Positions 41,172-59,819 of a stretch of 64,000 bases of DNA are shown here, piece by piece. A program made the translations under genes and the position numbers. The first letter of the stretch is position 1. Every line of letters begins with the position of its first letter. This DNA comes from Chrysomallon squamiferum (lineage: Eukaryota; Animalia; Mollusca): NCBI GenBank assembly GCA_012295275.1, contig CM022672.1, forward strand, positions 15,624,001 through 15,688,000, in the 5' to 3' direction. The notes under the pieces were generated by a model. That model searched no databases and was not told the DNA's origin. It saw only the letters and a list, made by a program, of their open reading frames with translations.

Positions 41172-44100
41172 AAAAAAAATAAATTTAAAAAAAAAAAAAA
41201 AATTTAAACAAAACAAAAAAATAATAAAACTAAGTAAATAAATAGAATAAATTTTTTTTTTTTTTTTTAAATAGTAGCATGAATAAATACTTTATTTCCT
41301 TTATACTTAAATGAGAAATACAAAAATTCAAGCATGCATTTGTGATTGAGCCTTGGTAAGAAGTTGGGTATCAAATAGAATGTAGTGCAAAGATAAAACT
41401 GAACTGAGAACAGCAGCATAATGATTCACCAGACAATAAAAGCCAATGCATAGCTTATGTAAGGTGCAGCATAATAACTAAGAAAATAGAGACCTGTTTC
41501 CAATGTCTACATGATACAGGAAAATGCAGTTTTACAATATTATTATTTAAAAAAAAAAAAAAAAAATGTTTAAAAAAAAAAAATCTATCAGAACAGCAAA
41601 AAGTATAAGAACAATAAATCAGAAGTTAGAACCATTTTAATAAATAATTTCCAACCCATCTAATTTCTACAGCAGTTATTTTAGATAAAAAGATGATAAA
41701 TTATGGAAAAAAAAAAGAAAAAAAGTAGAGCAACTTACAGTCATCTGAAATATTAAAAAAATAAATAAATAAAAGCATCAGAATAATTAAATATTATTAC
41801 TATTCTAATTTTTAAAAAAGTAACGTCATTTTTGTAAATTTTTAAAATTTGTATATACACTCATTTATTTATGTAATGGTTTAAAAAAAAAAAAAAAAAT
41901 ACAGAATAAAAGGATTACCTTTGTTGAACTGCTGCAGGATATATATTTCATAATATTTTTATTTATTTATTTACTTATTTTTAATTCTCTTACTGAAATA
42001 AAAAAAGTCCTTGTTTTATTTTATCTGTTAAATACAGGTTTTTGTATTCTTGTTTTGAAAAGTTTATGTGTAACTGCAGATAATCATGAAAGAAAATACC
42101 AATGATGTAAAGGCACAAAAAAACCTATAAGAAACAAGAATGAAACGAATTAAATGGCTAGATTCAGCACTATTGATGATTGTAACAATTATTTATTAGT
42201 TTGAAAAGTTCTGCTTTATATTTACTAACACTTATGACGAAACGGTTAGATTGTGTTTAATTGGAAACAAAACATATATGATTCAACGCTGATCCCAGTC
42301 ATAAGTGAATATTCACACCTTAATTTGTATTTTTATTTATGTGTTTATTTGTTATTTGTTTTTAGCTTTGCTTGTTAGAATTTTTTTCTCTCATATTCTA
42401 CTTTACCCAAATTGTTTAAATACACCTGGATTTATTCCATGAATTATCTTTGATTTCATGATGAGGTACACAGGTAATCTAGATTTAAAAATAATATTGT
42501 GCCCTGCCATTAGATGTTATATAATAAGACATGTTCAGTGATAAATATTTACATTTTTGAATACCAACACCAAAGTATTTTTTATCAAGAATTTTACAAA
42601 TTGAAAGACTAAACAGAAAGATTCATGCATGCTACAGTTACAAAAGTAAGCCAACAAAAAAAAAAAAAAAAAATAATAATAATAATAATAATAAAATAAA
42701 AATTTTAAAAAATATAATAAATATAATAAATAAATAAATAAATAAATAAGTAAATAAGTAAATAAAATAAATAAAAAATAAATAAATAAATAAATAAATA
42801 AATTAAATTAAATTAAATTAAATTAAATTAAATTAAATTAAATAAAGAAAACAGAGCAGCTTGAATGTGGGTTTTTTAAAATAACTAGTGTTGAGATTTT
42901 TCTTCTTCTTCTGTACATATTTTTTACTTGAATGTGACTATTTTGTACAATATATGAGTCAAGGTTCAAAGTATACAAATTTTCAAATATAAATTTTGAA
43001 AATAAATTTGAAAAAAAAAAAAAAAAAATCTTGAAGTGACTTGTACAAAAAATTACAAGACTAAACAAATACATCAAAACTCACACCAAAATTTTAATAT
43101 CATTATGTTTTAAAATAATTATTTTTCTTGAAATTTTTTTACTTAATCTTTAGAAATTTGATAAGATTACCTTAAACAAATTAAAACATTTTAAATAAAG
43201 CAATGCAATTTGTTATTTATTTACAATGTCTTTTCAATGTTTTTAAATTTATTAAAATTGAAACAACTATCAAAACGGTTTAAAGATTGGTGTGAACTGA
43301 ACTATAACAAATATTTTAAACTTATCTAAGATGCAATATCAAATAAAAAAAAATTAAAGATTACCTTGACCTCCAGGGTACAAAGTTCGAAATGCTTTTC
43401 CAAGATCTTCAGCTTGAATTTTGCCAGCTGGTGTCAATTCTCCACCCCATTTAACAATAAGAACTAGCGATGGTTCTCTGGGAACTTCATCTATAAACAA
43501 TAAATGTCAATGCTGACAATAACATTACAATCATTTATATAAATAATAAATATTACAACAATTTATACATGTAATGAACATTGTTACATCAATTTACTTA
43601 TAAATTTTAAAATATTGCAGACATAATTGTGTTCACAATTACTTTTTATACAGCTGAATGTGAATTTTCTCTGAAAACTTCATTTCTGTTCTCACTGCAT
43701 TTATTAAATATCAACTTTATTTTAAATGTTTCATGTTTTAAATATACCCATAAAAAAGAACACTTTCTTTTACCAGATTTTTTAATATTCAGTTTCAATG
43801 TAAATACAAAATAAACTTTATGGATATGATGAATTTTCACAACTAAACATAATATAATGACACATATTATTTTTGTATAAATGGCTTATGAAAACTAACA
43901 AAAAAAGGAAAAAGCAGTAATGAACTATACATACATTTACCATTCATAAAATAACTAACTTCAAAGAATAATATTATATAATATGCTGTTAATAATTTGA
44001 AAATTATAATTTTAAAAAATATAAAATATTATCATTAGTGATTGGTGCTATGAACAACATTGGCAAGTTACAAAATATCAAACACTTCTAAAAAAAACAT

Positions 44101-45835: not shown

Positions 45836-48729
45836 GTAATAATAAAGCCTCTAGAAAAAAGGATTACTTTTAACATAGGTCATTAAATGAAATTTCATAA
45901 ACACCTGTCATACATGCTAAAATACAGGTAGATAGCATTAACTTCATTTTTCATTTGTTTTCTATAGATTTAATAAAAGAAAAATAAATGAAAAAAAAAA
46001 CATTTATACCATGAACATAAATTCATAGACTTTAGCATAAGAAAGATTATAATTTTTACAAAGTACTTGAGATTTAAAAATGGTAGCATTTCTATCACAA
46101 CTGATCAACTTATAACATTTGAGGCTGCAATAACTTAGTAAAAACACGTGCAATTTTCCAACCACCATCATCAAAAAATAAAATAAATAAATTAATATGC
46201 ATTTATTTTTAAATTGAGGGCAAACACATGTTATTAAAATCAAATAAAAGGAAAAATCAAAATTTCCAGGATAAAACCCACAACAAACTTTTGACGATAT
46301 AATCTGTTAATGTTAAAATGGTGTAACTGTGAATGTCATGTCTAAGATTTCCAAGATCCCTAATTGTGACCATTCAGAGAGTACAATGGTATTTTTAAAA
46401 AGAAATGAAATATTACAAATATTTTATCACCGATATATACTGGGTGAGCATTGTAAAATTATGATTTAAACAATTTGTATTATTAAACTTAAATCAGCAG
46501 CCAAATTAAGGGTACTTTTATATCTGATTGGAAACTAATACATCCCTAACATTTATCTTACTGTTTGAATGTTCAAAAAATTAATAATTTTGTTTATTGA
46601 AATTATTACTGTAATAATAAAATGTAAGATTTTCACATAGTGTCATTTTTATTTTTTATATTCCAGGTGAAAGACTTCATCTGGAGAATCTTAATCTAAA
46701 AAGTGAAAAATAGATTGATTTATTTGTACTATTTCAAAACAAAAATATATTAGAATCACTGTACACTTTAGTTAAATACAATGATGATTATACTGCAGCA
46801 TAAACATCTTCATACTAGGTAAGAAAATAGGCTACAGACATCAATGTATGCAATTAATATGAAGACTGTCGCAAACCTTTTGGTTTTAGGGGATTTTTTT
46901 TTTGTACTAGCAAAACTACATTAATGTGATATAACTTGGTAAATGTTCTGGTTAAATAATACCTATCCTGGGTTGACAAGAGTCATCTATATTCTCATAT
47001 TGGACTGCTTGCTCACCTAAATCCAAAGAAAAAGATTAGTTTCTGTCTAAAACTCAACAAATAGTGCAATGAAATTAACTTTCTCCTTTCTTTTCTCATT
47101 TTCATTTACAATAGTTAATCATCAAATAATAATAATAAAAATATTTATGTATACATGTTTCTACCAGTAGCATCTGAAAAGAAAGATTAATGAATTAATA
47201 AAAAAGAAAAACTGAACTAAAATAGAAAGAAACTGAAAATTGAAGCAACCGTGTATTTGGGCAGTTCCAAAAACTTGTACAAGAAAAACCTGGGGAGACT
47301 TGATTTGCTGTAGTAAAAGTTAATATACCACTACCATCTTCACTGTCTGTGTCAGTGCATGGACACAAATATATGTCTTGATTAATATCAGTAACGAGAT
47401 AATTTGTACCTGAACTCTGGTCTTAGAAACTGAAACCCACAAGTTAAGACAACTCATGCCAATCTTATCCTTTTTAACTCTGAATTCTGTATTTAGTGGC
47501 TCTTGTTTTGTTTATTGGTTTATGGATTCACCGAAGTTAAATTTCCCAATTTGTTAAAATAAAAATAATTGAGATTATTCTGAGCTATGGTTAAAAAATG
47601 TCCTTCAAAGGTCTCTTTGAAATTATCTCTTTTGAGGATAATTTAATTTTTATGTGTGTGTGTGTGTGTGTCACCTTCTCAAAGATATTTTTGGAACCAC
47701 CCTTAAAGACTGTATAAATATATAAAGATTAATGAAAACAGTAACAAGAAAAAACTAGCATAACTAGAACTTAATTTAAAGAGCACCATCACAAATTAAT
47801 TGATAAATTCACAAACAGAAAGCAATGCTACCTGCTCACAACATCATTGAAAACGTTATTAATTTAAAATTTACATTTAAAAACTAATCTATGTTCTAAA
47901 AAGCAGTTTACAATTAAGAATCAGCATTAAAATATATCACTCTTCTTTTAATTCATCTTTGTATTATTAGAAACAAAATTTAAAATACAATAATAATAAT
48001 AACAATCTGAAAAATGTTTAGTTTTTTCACTCAAACTGTTGACAGCAGTCAGGCAACATATGGCTTCTTAACATTCAGGAACTAAAAAATTAGCAAAATT
48101 AATGAATTAATTAAACCAAAAAATAAATAATACGCAGACAACAGGAATATTTTTTTCAGGAACATTTTGCAGTGACAGATGTATGAATGCATTTTCACTG
48201 AAAATTTCACTCTATATTCTGCTTCTGTTTTTTTCAACCAAAAATAAAATAAAAAATAAAGTTCTAATTGAGATAAAAAATGTTCCTTTGATATGCTAAA
48301 GAAACCATAATGTATGCAATATTTAAAAAAAATAAACACCTTTCTAAGCAAAATGTTACTAAAAAGAATTTTAAAATTTAAAATTTCAAGACATGTGCCA
48401 AAGTCTTTTTGACTGAACTGTATGTTTTGTAATTTTTTTTTAAGTTTTCTTTATTTTTATATCAATAAATATTTATTTTAATCAGTTTTTGCTTTTAGAA
48501 TTTAAATAAATATAAAAAAAACCAGACAGTTGTAATGAGCACTGTAATAATAAAACAGATGTGCGTGAATGGATGAGATAAATGTGCAAAAAAACTGTGA
48601 ATTACTGATTATCAATTATGCAGTGGACTGTAATATAATTATCTTTAAATACATTTATCTTCTTTCGTGCTATGATTATATACTGTGAATCTAATGGGTT
48701 GTTTTTTTCAACCAAACAGATAATACCAA

Positions 48730-48760
<31 letters not shown>

Positions 48761-51700
48761 GCAATGTTTTCAACAGCACTACAAGTCAAGATAAAAGGGC
48801 TGTGGCACATGAGTGTGGGTAACATCTAAACGGCAGCAAGCCAAACATTACAAACCATCGCTAGAGGAGCCTCTTGGTCGGCCCCAGGGCTGATATTTAA
48901 ACTGAATCTTGCGATTGATCCCCGTGAACTCATACCTACAGACGGACGGACAGAAAAAGTGCATTCAAAATCCAAGTTTAAGAGAACAAAAATGTTGTGT
49001 TTAGTAAATGAAAGTTTTACATTTGTAGAATAATCCTCTGTATGTTTTTTTTTGTTGTTGTTTTTTTAAAAAAGAAACAATAAATATTGAATAATTTAAA
49101 ATTAGCATTAAATTACTAACCAATAATCTTTTAAATTTATAATTTTAAATTTATAATTATTTTTTTTAATATATTTCCACATCGTTATGGATCAAAGCTA
49201 ACAAATAAAATAAGAAATATGCTTGTTTTAATAGAAATCATTTCCAAAATAAATTTTTATTAAAAAAAAAAAAAAGAATTATAAAATTAATTTAGCTGTT
49301 TAACCAAAGGTTTTTTAAATGTTATTATTAGTATTTTATATTTGCTTTAATTTAGTATCTTAGTTCTCAAAAAGGTACTTTATTTTATCATAATATATCA
49401 GTTATGTATTTTTGTTTTCTTTAAAGTTGTTTCCCACAAAAATATCAAGCATTGTATAATTTTTTTTAAAACCAATGCCATTTTAATTTTTTAAATATTA
49501 TAAGCATACAGAGATGATTCTACAGAAGTTGTTAACCGTGTATACTTCTTTCAAAGAAATCCTCTGAAATCTAAGAAATAAATATTCATTAGTCAACTAA
49601 TCTAGTCCTGGCATGAGTGAGCCCTGATGCTGAAACTGTACCATTGTTTAACACAAACCCTCTGAATGTGCAAGTAATCCTGTGACTAGTGAAGAAGCTG
49701 ACTGCTAAAAGCTACTAAAACGAGTGTTTACAAAGTGCTAATACTTAAATCATAAATACCCATGCATGGACATGCAAGGCCACTATTTTTTGTCTAGGAT
49801 CTGTAACAGTATGTGCTTTTCATAAAAACCTTAGACTGTATAAATCTAAAAAAAAAATATTTTAAAAGAAAATATTTTTTTCACAAAATCATTTTATTGT
49901 CATGAAATGACAGTTCATTTCCTTATTAATTTATTTTCAAATTTTCAAATGAAGACAAATTTGACAGCTAAATTATTAGACTGTTTTTCATGATCTTTAG
50001 TGCTGTAGATTTTTGATTATTCACATTAGAATGTGTAAGAAAATAATTCAATTTCATAATCAGAAAAAAAACGTTTCTTTTTTTAGTTTTTACATTTTTA
50101 AATGTTATTATTAGTATTGTAATTAATTTTTTTTTAATTTTAATATTAAATAAAAACAGATATTTTCTTTCTGATAATTTTTAAATAAATAAATAAATAA
50201 ATAAATCACTGGTTAACAAAATACTGGAAACATCTAACATGACAGAGATATTTGTCATTTTGACTTTCTTTAGGAAAAGCAGTTTTTGCTACAGACCACA
50301 TTATGCAACAGAAATACAAGAAAAAGAGGACTGAAATATGAAGATTACACACCCTCCTCACTGGACGAGCGTTTGGGTCGACCCATAGGCTGATACTTCA
50401 ACTGCACCTTGCGATTTATTCCAGAAAAATGACCATACCTGCAAATTTAATTGGCCATTCACCTTGTAGGATGGTTGCAATACAGTGACAAAACAGTTGG
50501 GAAGAAAACATGACAGACATAAATTTTAAATCATAAACAAGTGCCTGTTTGTACATGACACAACACTGAAAAGCTAATTCTGATTATTATTTCTTATTTA
50601 GCAATGTCTGAAGATAAAACTTAAATTTTCAACTGAATAATGTTAACTGTAATTAATATTAATTATAAGATGATTTCTAACTTTTAAACATAATTTTGTG
50701 GCAAATAAATGCTACAATTATGTACAGATTTTTTATTAGAATATTTACTATTAACAAAACAATATTCAATAAACATGTGCAAAGCAGCAAAACTGTATCT
50801 AAAGGGTAATTAGCCATAAATCTACAATTATTTTGTTTTTATAAACAACAAAATAACTTTAAAGTACGAACAATCATTTAAAATTAATTTTAATGAACAC
50901 TGATTACATCATAATAATGTAATGATTTTCAGATGAAAATGTTGGTTATAGTAATCATGCAAAACACAGATTGACTAAGAGACAAAATAACCATCACACA
51001 GTCAGTGATCACACAAAGTGTCCAAAAGAAAAAAAAAAGGGTATAGGGAGATATTATTTGAAACAGATTTAACTATTAAAATAAGAAACCATTTTAAACA
51101 TTTTGCATCCTGTCATGCAAACAAACACTACAATTAAATATTTAAAACTATAAGTTACTTTTTGTATTTCAAATATCGTCAGGAAATCTTAAATGTTTAC
51201 TTTGTACTGAAACTGAGTTTTAACTGTAACAGGTAATTTAAAAAATTACAAAGTTCTAACCCTAATTACAAAAAGGAAACCAGTAAAATAAATTAGATAA
51301 TTCCATGTTGTTTAAAATTGCAGTGTTGAAGACAATTTTTTTAAATTAAAAGTACAACTCTTATAAAAATATAAAATTATTTACTCACATTTCAAGAACA
51401 AGTTTCAGTTGCTGCAACTTAGCTTTCTTTTCTTCAACCTCAGGATCAATAAATTCTTTATTCTCACTCAGTAAATATCGCACAATATCAAGCACTTCCT
51501 GCAACTGCTTCGGTTTTTTCAGTTTTAAATGTGAAGTCTTAAATCCACCATATTTTTCAAATAATTCAAAAAACCTAAAACAGACAGTTCAGGGTGTAAA
51601 AATTAAATAAAATGTGTAATCTCTTTTTTTTTTCTTGTTTGGAAGCCTACAATTTCATAATAAGCATGTTAATAATAATATAAATAAATAAATAAATAAA

Positions 51701-54700
51701 TAAAAATTAAATTAGAAACAAACTGGAATTAAACATAACTAAAATGACATTAAATATTTTTTTATTTAAGTTTTTCTCATAACAATGAATAAAATACGCA
51801 ATTTATTAGTATTGTGACTGATAAAAATCTGATACAATCTACTGAAGATTCTGTTACAACTCAAAGTATTGTGCTGCTAACCTGGTCTTTAAAGGTACAG
51901 AAGAAGACTGAAATTCTTACTTTGTATGTTTGACTTCCATCTTCATTTTCTGTTTAGGTGTCCTGTCTCCATGTCGAATAATAGCTGACACACACCTCAA
52001 CTCCATCCTGTAAAATACATTTTTTAAATTTCTTACAAATCTTTTAATAACTGATCTTTTAAATACAAAATAATTGTTAAAGTTTAAATGAATAATAGTA
52101 ATTCTGGAATATGAAAGAGTTTCTTTGCAGTTAATGTTTTGTTTCTAATAATGTGAAACTACTAATCCCTTTGTGGGAATGCTGCTATTTAACAACTGTT
52201 AAAAACTGATATGAAATTTTGGATGTAATCAGAAATAATCACTAGCTCCATTATTTTAATTAACAAGAATATATGAAATGAGTGGTTAAACACAAACACA
52301 CCTAGGCAAATCTATACATATACATACATACACATGGAGGTGAAGTATGTATGTGCATATTGATAAATAACCCCTGTAACTGGTCTCATATTAAAAATAT
52401 TCATGGTGACAGTTACTGAATTTTTAGCTCAGCACAGCAATACCAAATTCATTTATTTATGTCAACAGTCTTTTTATAACTGTCAAAAATAAAATTACTT
52501 TAAAAAACGTTATGAACACGATAATTTTTTAACTGCAAGGACTCTACTATCTTAAAGGATAAATAGTAATTACATAGGCCCCGAAGTGGTTGGAACCACA
52601 GGAATATCTTCTGGTGCAGCACCTAGAACCCAAGGTATCTCAAGCTGAAGCTGTGGGGCTAGGGCTCGAGTAATCATTGTTCTGAAAAACAAAAAAAATC
52701 ATAATAATATTTTATATTAAAGCAATTTTACAGAAACAGTCTAATTCAGCAACATGTCCAAGTACATTTATATTCTGGGATATAAACTTTCAATGGCTTA
52801 GATTTTTAATAACAGAATTTCAGTTATTTATTTTGATACTTAAATCCTGGAATAAACTTTCAAAGGTTCAAATGACTTTTAACATGCTAAGGTAGATAAA
52901 CAACACAATTTTCCATGTCACAATTAACATACATAACTTTATCATGTTTGTGCAAAGTCAAACAATGTTTTTGAAAATGTTGTAAATTAATTTCACAAAA
53001 TTCAATACTAAATAATTACCCTAGTATTTTTGCACAGTCATCGTAATACTTGCTAGATGTTTTCACAAAACTGAACCCATTAACATCACAGACATAGGAT
53101 TCTCCATTAGCTCTGAGCAAATCAAATCCACATATATTTTGCTATCAAAGAGAAAGCGTGAACTAATGTAACTAATCTTAGTGTAATGATAAAAGGAACC
53201 TAATAGTAATGCTATGTAAATATTATTTATTAACAATACTGAGAAATTGCAAGTATATTATTTAGAATAAACTTGAAAATTTAATGTGAAAACAACTCCT
53301 TATATTAATTTATAATTACATGAGTAAACAATCTGAAAACTACATGCATATGTGTGTTTGTTATGTATGTTTGTATGTGTGTGTGTGTGTATATATATAT
53401 ATACACAAACACACCTATTCACACACATATGTATATGCATATTTTGTAAAGATCAATGCTAAGAAGCAAAATTAGTATATACACTGTAGATAGCTGAATT
53501 TCTTTCTTACAGATTGATTACAAAATCACGTCACAGTTTTAATTCAATAATAAATCTGCCAGTATCAGGTAAAAACATGACAAACCTTAAATGCTTGACA
53601 CACTTTTTTTGCTATCATTTTTTCTTTTGCACTAAGGAGTACTGGATAGCGAATTTCTTTTCCATCCTGATCTCGTTCCACTTTGCCATCCAGTGCAGGA
53701 CTCTTGCGAGCTTCTGCATGAGCATAGTCTGGTCCAACAGTGTAAACCTTCCACAAATAAACATTAAATAATTACACTAATATATACAACATTATTTAGC
53801 AATAAAACAAAAATGTATTTCATAAACAGAGACATGAAAAAAAGCAGCAGTAATAGGTATAGTGGGTACTTATTAATCTGATATATGTCCACTTTGAATC
53901 ATACCAAATGTGGTTTTCTTTTTTGGAGTAAAATTGAAAATGTTTACTTTAAATACTATAAAAACAAAGTCTGAATTTGGAAACATAAAAGAATGTAAAT
54001 TGTATAACAATAATAATATTTGAATAACAGGGGTAAATACAGATTTGGTTTTAAATGCATTCAGCAGAGTTAAATCCACAACAACATATTTAATTAAAAT
54101 AAATAGTTTCCTCACCTTTACATCAGTACCATCAGTTGGCATAAACTCTTCATAAATGTAAGAACCAGATTTTCTTACTCTGCTCATTGGAGAATAAAAA
54201 CTACTACGGTCTTTGACCTGAAACAAAAGTAATTTAAAAACAATGAAATGGACTGAAAATATAAAGTTTAATGATATATTTCAGCATAAATACATTATAA
54301 CATGTAGTTATAACATCCTATCACTGTTCAGAAGAAAATCAAAGCATAGTCCAAAACAGGACAAACAAAAATGCTGTTATTTTATTCATTTTCACAACTG
54401 AATACAGACCTTTCTGAAAAGCCTTGTACTTCCACCACCAGCAGCAATTGGAAAGTATATATTGACATTATGATCTTCGGCATCAACTGGCTTTTCAACA
54501 AAAGGTTTCTGGAAGACAACACCATCAATTTCTATGGAATCTTCGGTTTCATGCACATCACCTAAAAATGACAAAATAAAAAATAGATGGTTAATACACA
54601 TATCACTTTTATTTACAGATGCTGCTAAATTTCACAGTGACCAAATCTGTAGTTTTTATGTTTCACTAATGATCACAATTACCATTCATTATATATTTAA

Positions 54701-58376: not shown

Positions 58377-59135
58377 TATTATAACAAACTACGTGGTGGA
58401 TAAACATTGACATTATCAGGAAAATTAGCAAACTGATTCTATAATTGTGTTGCTATTTTGTTGTTTTGTTTCTCTTCGTGTTTAATGTAAACTGCTATTA
58501 TTGGCCACAAACAGTGAAAGGTAGGTGACTGTGAAACTGTTGAATGTGAACGAATGACAACTGAGAGTTTTATATTACTTAAAGTTTCAGTATTAATTAA
58601 CTGAACTACACTGGCTTTCCCTCAGTCAAACTGTTTTAACTTAAACTGATATGAGTAACTGGGGATTAATGGGGAAATTGTAAAAGTTATGCTCTGAGGA
58701 ATCTGCCGACAAACCATTATCGCATAAAGAGGCGTGGCCTGTAACTGTTTGGAGTCAGTAAGGTTGACTTTCACATGACCAGTTGTTTACACCAGTGGAC
58801 CCAATTATGGCCAGTGATGGTCAGTAGCCTTGGCTTAGATAACATGTGAGGTAAACAGCCCTGAGTGGCAGCAATTAAGGGCATCTGGTTAGAAAGTAAA
58901 TTTAAAATAAAGATTCTTGAAGAGATCAGTTGTAATCTGATAACAGTCAAAACTTAAAATACTGAATTAAAAGAAAGTTAGTAGAATAAACTATTTTAAT
59001 ATTTCACTGAATGTGTAACAATGAATTCACAGTAAAGTAAATTTTGTAATCAAAATAATACTAATCTGTGGAACAAAGCACTACAAATTAAATATATTGA
59101 TTTAAATAAATATTTAAGTTGACACAAAATATATT

Positions 59136-59545
59136 ACTGGCTTTTCACCATTTAATCTGATGTTTGGAAGACACACTCAACTTCCGATTGACTGTCTTCT
59201 GGGTGGAGTCAACGGTGAGAAGATGGAGAAGATACTTCCAGAATGGATACTGGAGTATCAAGAGAATCTACGTTATGCCTATGAAAAAGCAGGAGAGCAT
59301 ACCAGATTTGAGACAAGCGAGGAAGGCTCCCCGTGATGATGTGCTAAGAGATAATCAATATAAGCATTGATTCCCTTGTAAATCTCAGGAACAGAAACAT
59401 CCAGGATAAGAAAATTATTCAAGATCACTGGAAAAGTCAACTGTACAGAATCACTGAAATGCTGGATCAAGATGGAAGGTTATGCAAAGTTTGTCCTCTG
59501 GAAGATGACAAAGACAATAGGGTGGTGAACAGGTCGGAGATGAGC
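59136..59545 (+). pseudogene. Gypsy integrase C-terminal remnant
   Basis: Translates to TGFSPFNLMFGRHTQLPIDCLLGG, then after disruption LRNRNIQDKKIIQDHWKSQLYRI...RVVNRSEM. Confidence 0.85.
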
Positions 59546-59819
59546 CATGTTACATACAACCAGAAAGATGATTTGATAGAGGCTGAACATCAGTTAGACA
59601 GTGTAGAAACAACCAGTCTATTGCATTAGATATAACACAATCTAGTGAAATGTACTTCAAATATAAGTAATTTTTTAGAAGTTGGTAGATTATACTTCAT
59701 AATATAACATATGTAATTTTTAGAAATTTCTAATTTAAAATAACAATTTTATTTCTTTCCCAGAATAGTTAATCATCTTATGAATGTTTTCGAAAACGTA
59801 AATGTTAAGCAGGGGAGTT

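Follow-up and report, generated by a model that had tools for sequence, protein, structure and literature searches.

The window analysed here, a 64,000-nt stretch of Chrysomallon squamiferum contig CM022672.1 (assembly GCA_012295275.1, positions 15,624,001 to 15,688,000), holds on its minus strand a PPIP5K gene whose exons tile it from ~55700 to ~12100. PPIP5K makes and destroys the phosphate-sensing messenger InsP8. The exons of the orthologue of Gigantopelta (this name, like Haliotis, Biomphalaria, Babylonia, Pomacea, Ostrea and Lineus below, is the presumed full form of a truncated species name) tile the window at 61-100% identity. The orthologue matched PF18086 and PF00328 above cut-off, namely an ATP-grasp kinase domain and a histidine phosphatase domain, the two-domain arrangement of the PPIP5K/Vip1/Asp1 family. 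The RHxxR motif, the residues corresponding to K623, Q625, K627 and K644 and the hinges P553 and G646-G647 were also found (Vip1 numbering, after PMC11836120). The exons relevant to this work, with the acceptor region of one of them, are the following:

51921..52007, minus strand: constitutive exon; encodes the catalytic RHxxR and the proline of the first GAF hinge (Vip1 R547/H548/R551/P553, K554/K556/K558).
51389..51574, minus strand: upstream constitutive exon with GAF domain helices; its donor is common to exons A and B.
50438-50353, minus strand: exon A, 86 nt, the ancestral-type copy; end of a helix, linker, K-x-Q-x-K strand and first half of a flexible serine/acidic loop with a dibasic motif.
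48936..49035, minus strand: acceptor region of exon B, with a 98-nt AG-free zone and a branch-point-like ACTAA ~70 nt upstream; putative function.
48935-48856, minus strand: exon B, 80 nt, the derived copy; keeps K-x-Q-x-K, with one linker residue fewer and no dibasic motif.
46963..47016, minus strand: optional microexon D, 54 nt, phase 1-1; adds 18 residues to the GAF hairpin loop after A or B.
43364..43490, minus strand: downstream constitutive exon; supplies the partner strand and the KWGG motif (Vip1 K644, hinge G646-G647).

The upstream exon (51389..51574) had 95% identity to protein P0001 and at most 85% to every other match, which indicates a gastropod closely related to the species of P0001. 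Elsewhere in the window, C2H2 zinc fingers (PF00096, E 2.7e-10) are encoded by a 240-codon open frame upstream of PPIP5K, at 63071-62349 on the minus strand. The plus strand carries a 318-codon open frame at 1494-2450 with a weak, below-cut-off Pfam match, and two short open frames at 59118-59629 with no Pfam match, which resemble decayed sequence of a retroelement integrase.

The initial annotation had described A and B as paralogous exons, and their lengths, translations, phases and intact splice sites were all reproduced. The two are adjacent homologous exons on one strand, separated by an intron of 1417 nt. Each is bounded by an AG acceptor and a GT donor, begins in phase 2 and ends in phase 1. 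A message with A only or B only keeps the frame into KWGG, with or without the 54-nt microexon (47016-46963). As had also been claimed, inclusion of both or neither breaks the frame: between the flanking exons (51574-51389 and 43490-43364) a message with A and B meets a stop at codon 125 of 159, and one lacking both meets a stop at codon 62 of 104, so that double inclusion and skipping both give premature stops.

The A and B exons are themselves the longest direct repeat in the interval 46900-51600 (65 nt, 75%), with a local alignment score of 50 against 19 and 24 for the 200-nt intron flanks; the resemblance does not extend beyond the exons. In a codon alignment in which the gap in B was set opposite a glycine of A, the 26 paired codons comprised 8 identical, 10 synonymous and 8 non-synonymous pairs, yielding NG86 estimates of dN 0.19 and dS 1.99, the latter saturated. 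The Gigantopelta A-form protein matched exon B of the window with an E value of 6.7e-6, and the Gigantopelta B-form protein matched it with 100% identity over 25 residues (E 4.7e-11). The low dN relative to dS, together with the retention of B in three mollusc classes, points to purifying selection on both copies. As judged from sequence, A and B are an old tandem duplication with both copies under such selection, as the initial annotation had proposed from their many synonymous differences.

The position of the swapped segment within the enzyme could be assigned by alignment with S. cerevisiae Vip1. According to PMC11836120, the phosphatase of PPIP5K carries a GAF domain that opens and closes over a basic channel on hinges at P553 and G646-G647. 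In Vip1, K623, Q625 and K627 are InsP8-binding residues needed for activity, and joint mutation of E576, K623, Q625 and K627 leaves the enzyme inactive. The Gigantopelta A form aligned to the Vip1 structures 9grn and 9grh with an E value of 1.8e-6, and a single offset (533) brought R547, P553, K554, K605, K644, G646 and G647 of Vip1 into line with their mollusc counterparts. In the same alignment the exon-encoded K-x-Q-x-K fell on K623/Q625/K627; both A and B keep this motif and the preceding F-x-G. The linker of A has the length found in yeast and that of B is one residue shorter. The alignment shows the swapped segment to correspond to the predicted InsP8-binding strand of the GAF domain together with the preceding linker and the following loop, and this placement of both exons is new in the present analysis. 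The mollusc protein thus shares with Vip1 (9grh/9grn/9gro; PMC11836120) the RHxxR motif, both GAF hinges and the three binding residues, all in register, and differs from it in a post-strand loop that is longer, rich in serine and acidic residues and alternatively spliced.

AlphaFold models of a B-type (P0374) and an A-type (P0367) Pomacea protein both placed in this segment a helix, a linker, a strand over K-x-Q-x-K, a low-confidence loop and a partner strand from the next exon, and in the B model the linker (residues 486-488) had pLDDT below 50. Since mean pLDDT was modest (60.4 and 57.7 for the two models) and 34 of the 46 rows in the alignment behind the B model were A-type, these models show a strand compatible with both exons and not the difference between them. 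A Foldseek superposition of the B model on 9grh (E 3.1e-15) was too loose for residue mapping, with an rmsd of 12.7, and was discarded.

The A and B isoforms differ in about 10 residues. The shorter linker between helix and strand was found in all 10 distinct B peptides from named molluscs, and a dibasic pair directly before the serine run was present in 18 of 20 mollusc A rows and in none of the 10 B peptides. Such a pair before serine would make a PKA-type site. The initial annotation had listed the changes GHFS to EFT, M to W and KR to RG. Across molluscs the residue at the M-to-W position is free to vary in either copy, and M to W, together with L to F, was rejected as a functional change because it is lineage-specific. 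The loss of the dibasic pair is consistent in mollusc B, but RG before the serine run also occurs in the sole exon form seen in many arthropods, so that RG alone need not alter function. In cephalopods, exon A (P0344, P0079, P0061) carries an arginine in the linker, at a position occupied by histidine in nearly all the other animal proteins seen.

Among 643 proteins examined, 550 carried A, 46 carried B, 2 carried both and 45 lacked the segment; none of the 643 joined the flanking exons in the absence of either copy. The gene models of relatives thus carry A or B. The two proteins with both copies (P0032 and P0035) have them in the order A then B, separated by 15 and more than 100 unrelated residues, which we read as bridges introduced by gene prediction. 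All 37 named B-only proteins are molluscan, and the 9 further B-only proteins are unnamed fragments. The isoforms of relatives are automated gene models whose underlying read support is not visible, and at most 15 members of each cluster were listed (15 of 80 for Mytilus), so that the counts below are counts among the members listed. Both forms occurred among the members listed in 7 of the 10 mollusc clusters first checked, and B was found in the following:

Gigantopelta: 2 B and 7 A of 9.
Haliotis: 1 B and 14 A of 15 listed.
Patella: 1 B and 13 A of 15 listed.
Magallana: 2 B and 13 A of 15 listed.
Mytilus: 2 B and 13 A of 15 listed (cluster of 80).
Babylonia: 2 B and 13 A of 15 listed.
Dreissena: 13 B and 2 A of 15 listed.
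Pomacea: 5 B and 7 A of 12.
Octopus: 1 B and 1 A of 7.
Crassostrea: 2 B and 11 A of 13.
Ostrea: 4 B and 8 A of 12.

No B form was seen among the members listed for Aplysia (0/2), Biomphalaria (0/15), Littorina (0/7), Bradybaena (0/5), Ylistrum (0/2), a cuttlefish cluster (0/10) and two unionids (0/2). Outside molluscs, none appeared in the Lineus, horseshoe crab, Ixodes, stink bug and Bombyx clusters (0/15 listed in each), and B was likewise absent from 101 additional matches of a further search. Vertebrate proteins among the matches that hold the segment were of A type only. One unnamed fragment, P0611, has a short linker followed directly by the next strand and resembles no named relative. 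Because no annelid, chiton or brachiopod protein was identified among the matches, the upper limit on the age of the pair is weak. The one-residue deletion common to all B peptides argues for a single origin of B before gastropods, bivalves and cephalopods split. In a tree of the exons (28 columns), 10 of 11 B rows grouped together with one centipede row inside, and Octopus B sat on a long branch; with so few columns a single origin was neither demonstrated nor rejected (p-AU 0.383). The A/B pair probably predates the gastropod-bivalve-cephalopod split. The initial annotation had been prepared to abandon its proposal if B were neither joined by RNA-seq reads nor conserved in related genomes, and that refutation fails: B is conserved, and gene models of gastropods, bivalves and Octopus include it in alternative isoforms.

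Other parts of the gene also vary. Microexon D had been overlooked by the initial annotation, and a similar insert of 16 residues is present in 5 of 9 Gigantopelta isoforms, all A-type. Optional inserts at the same junction occur in many mollusc clusters and in Lineus, with unrelated sequences and varying lengths, and models from Patella, Dreissena and Pomacea combine their insert with B. Extra segments between the upstream exon and A/B in P0365 and P0370 (Pomacea), P0380 (horseshoe crab) and P0047 (Ylistrum) indicate that the junction before the strand is also a variable site. Just after the GAF hinge, in the phosphatase core, lies an 84-nt cassette exon (39256-39173, minus strand) whose translation exactly matches an insert that 6 of 9 Gigantopelta isoforms carry and that is absent from all other proteins matching the flanking pattern; the cassette appears to be confined to one lineage, in which it is fully conserved. 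The C-terminal tail holds another exon duplication, with exons of 75 and 57 nt (27000-26926 and 24927-24871, minus strand), each with KRSRSLEDK; these are additive and not either-or, since 8 of 9 Gigantopelta isoforms hold both.

We next consider how the choice between A and B might be enforced. PMC7969005 lists four mechanisms of mutually exclusive splicing. Steric hindrance of the OGDH type requires a branch point within ~50 nt of the upstream donor, followed by an AG-free zone up to the acceptor, and was rejected for an intron of 1417 nt with a 98-nt AG-free zone. Incompatibility of U2 and U12 sites was likewise rejected, since the donors GTGAGT, GTGTGT and GTTTGT do not fit the U12 consensus. 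A search for RNA pairing of the docking/selector kind, confined to this one genome, returned 338 inverted pairs, of which the 25 longest were all AT-rich; no convincing docking/selector pairing was seen among the inverted pairs at A/B. Rbfox-type TGCATG motifs were not enriched, with 5 in the 4427-nt cassette region against ~3 expected (31 in 44,300 nt of the gene). Given the 1417-nt intron and a branch-point-like site ~70 nt from the B acceptor, frame incongruity is the only enforcement demonstrated, and messages with both exons or neither would presumably be removed by nonsense-mediated decay.

The splice sites of the two exons are unequal. The 98-nt AG-free zone before B compares with 20-44 nt at the other five acceptors checked, and B has a weak donor (GTTTGT). 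The acceptor of A is short and pyrimidine-poor, with the joint-lowest pyrimidine content of the six acceptors checked. A long AG-free acceptor with a weak donor (B) and a pyrimidine-poor acceptor (A) are typical of regulated exons, and the choice may be set by competition between the short acceptor of A and the weak donor and long AG-free acceptor of B. Four RNA runs from one study held 0.36-0.44 of the words in a mostly intronic 7.5-kb stretch and one run of unclear type held 0.76, values that are uninformative on splicing. A and B are very probably a working mutually exclusive pair, the case for use of B in this organism coming from its relatives.

Comparable pairs are known. In the tandem duplicated exon substitutions of KHK, ACOX1, PKM, PFKP and FYN (PMC9741552), as in A/B, the exons are adjacent, either-or and ancient, and ligand-binding residues are kept and their neighbours changed; in the human set, ligand-binding residues inside the duplicated exons were kept in 80.6% of cases. 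Unlike that set, the PPIP5K pair was seen in molluscs only. PPIP5K is not named in the main text or one supplement file of PMC9741552, nor in a supplement file of PMC8373072, as far as these were available; further supplements may exist. The duplicated OGDH exons 4a/4b (PMC7969005) tune the regulation of a metabolic enzyme, as A and B may do, but there exclusivity comes from branch points that sit 25-41 nt from the upstream donor, compared with an A/B intron of 1417 nt. The splicing device is ordinary, and the isoforms are already present, unremarked, in public gene models. If human R399 is the RHxxR arginine, as we assume, then R399 and R417 lie upstream of the swapped exon. These residues are cited for PtdIns(3,4,5)P3 binding in human PPIP5K1/2, and A and B fall inside the phosphatase region corresponding to the human phosphoinositide-binding domain (residues 382-917; PMC4063336). 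A 2026 review states only, in its accessible text, that human PPIP5K genes show alternative splicing (PMC13573052), and searches for splicing terms in the available text of PMC13573144 and PMC11836120 returned no mention. The initial annotation had been aware of no mutually exclusive exons at this site, and we found no description of the pair in the literature searched by gene name and mollusc exon duplication, in which subscription journals are thinly covered; the pair is apparently undescribed.

Taken together, the reading we favour with moderate confidence, from the alignments and gene models above, is that an old A/B tandem duplication is spliced either-or to give two phosphatase domains that keep the InsP8-binding residues and would differ in tuning. 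On this reading B would still act as a phosphatase, with the movement of the lid or the capture of substrate altered and a basophilic-kinase site lost; the choice between A and B may then shift the balance of kinase and phosphatase, and with it the InsP8 level, in the cells that use it. Alternatively, the pair could be real and either-or with B having little or no phosphatase activity, giving a mostly kinase-only PPIP5K and raised InsP8. The deletion directly precedes the substrate-binding strand, the linker of the B model has pLDDT below 50 at residues 486-488, and Vip1 becomes inactive when residues of the GAF domain or its movement are changed (PMC11836120). However, K-x-Q-x-K and F-x-G, which a dead domain would not need, are kept in all 10 distinct B peptides from three mollusc classes, and 13 of the 15 listed Dreissena isoforms are B-type, making an inactive B improbable. 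That exon B of this genome is an unused relic or an assembly artefact is very hard to credit: its GTTTGT donor is weak, but over 25 residues its product shows no difference from an annotated B isoform of Gigantopelta, A and B differ mainly at silent sites and their intron flanks are dissimilar.

Rather unlikely, though less so than either of these, is that the two forms are enzymatically equivalent and were kept for use in different tissues or stages, for expression level or for coupling with the neighbouring microexon. Every mapped ligand residue is unchanged, in every lineage the post-strand loop is variable in both length and sequence and accommodates optional microexons, and the single exons of arthropods resemble B in the serine-run region. 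Against this, gastropods, bivalves and Octopus all maintain the same two differences between the copies, in linker length and in the dibasic motif, suggesting that the difference itself is selected. We consider it moderately probable, on balance, that the isoforms differ in tuning as described.

How cells balance the kinase and phosphatase of PPIP5K, and hence the level of InsP8, is an open question, and the 2025 structure paper closes by noting that further regulation is still to be found (PMC11836120). A stronger version of the favoured reading, which we put forward only tentatively, is that a half-billion-year-old splice switch of molluscs rebuilds the substrate-channelling lid of the phosphatase and leaves the kinase untouched, providing tissues with two set-points for InsP8 through differences in turnover, phosphate inhibition or kinase control. 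If true, this would be the first case of a GAF lid under natural regulation and would offer a ready pair for studying the lid in an animal enzyme. An ancient exon swap on the substrate strand of that lid would be a natural experiment on InsP8 balance.
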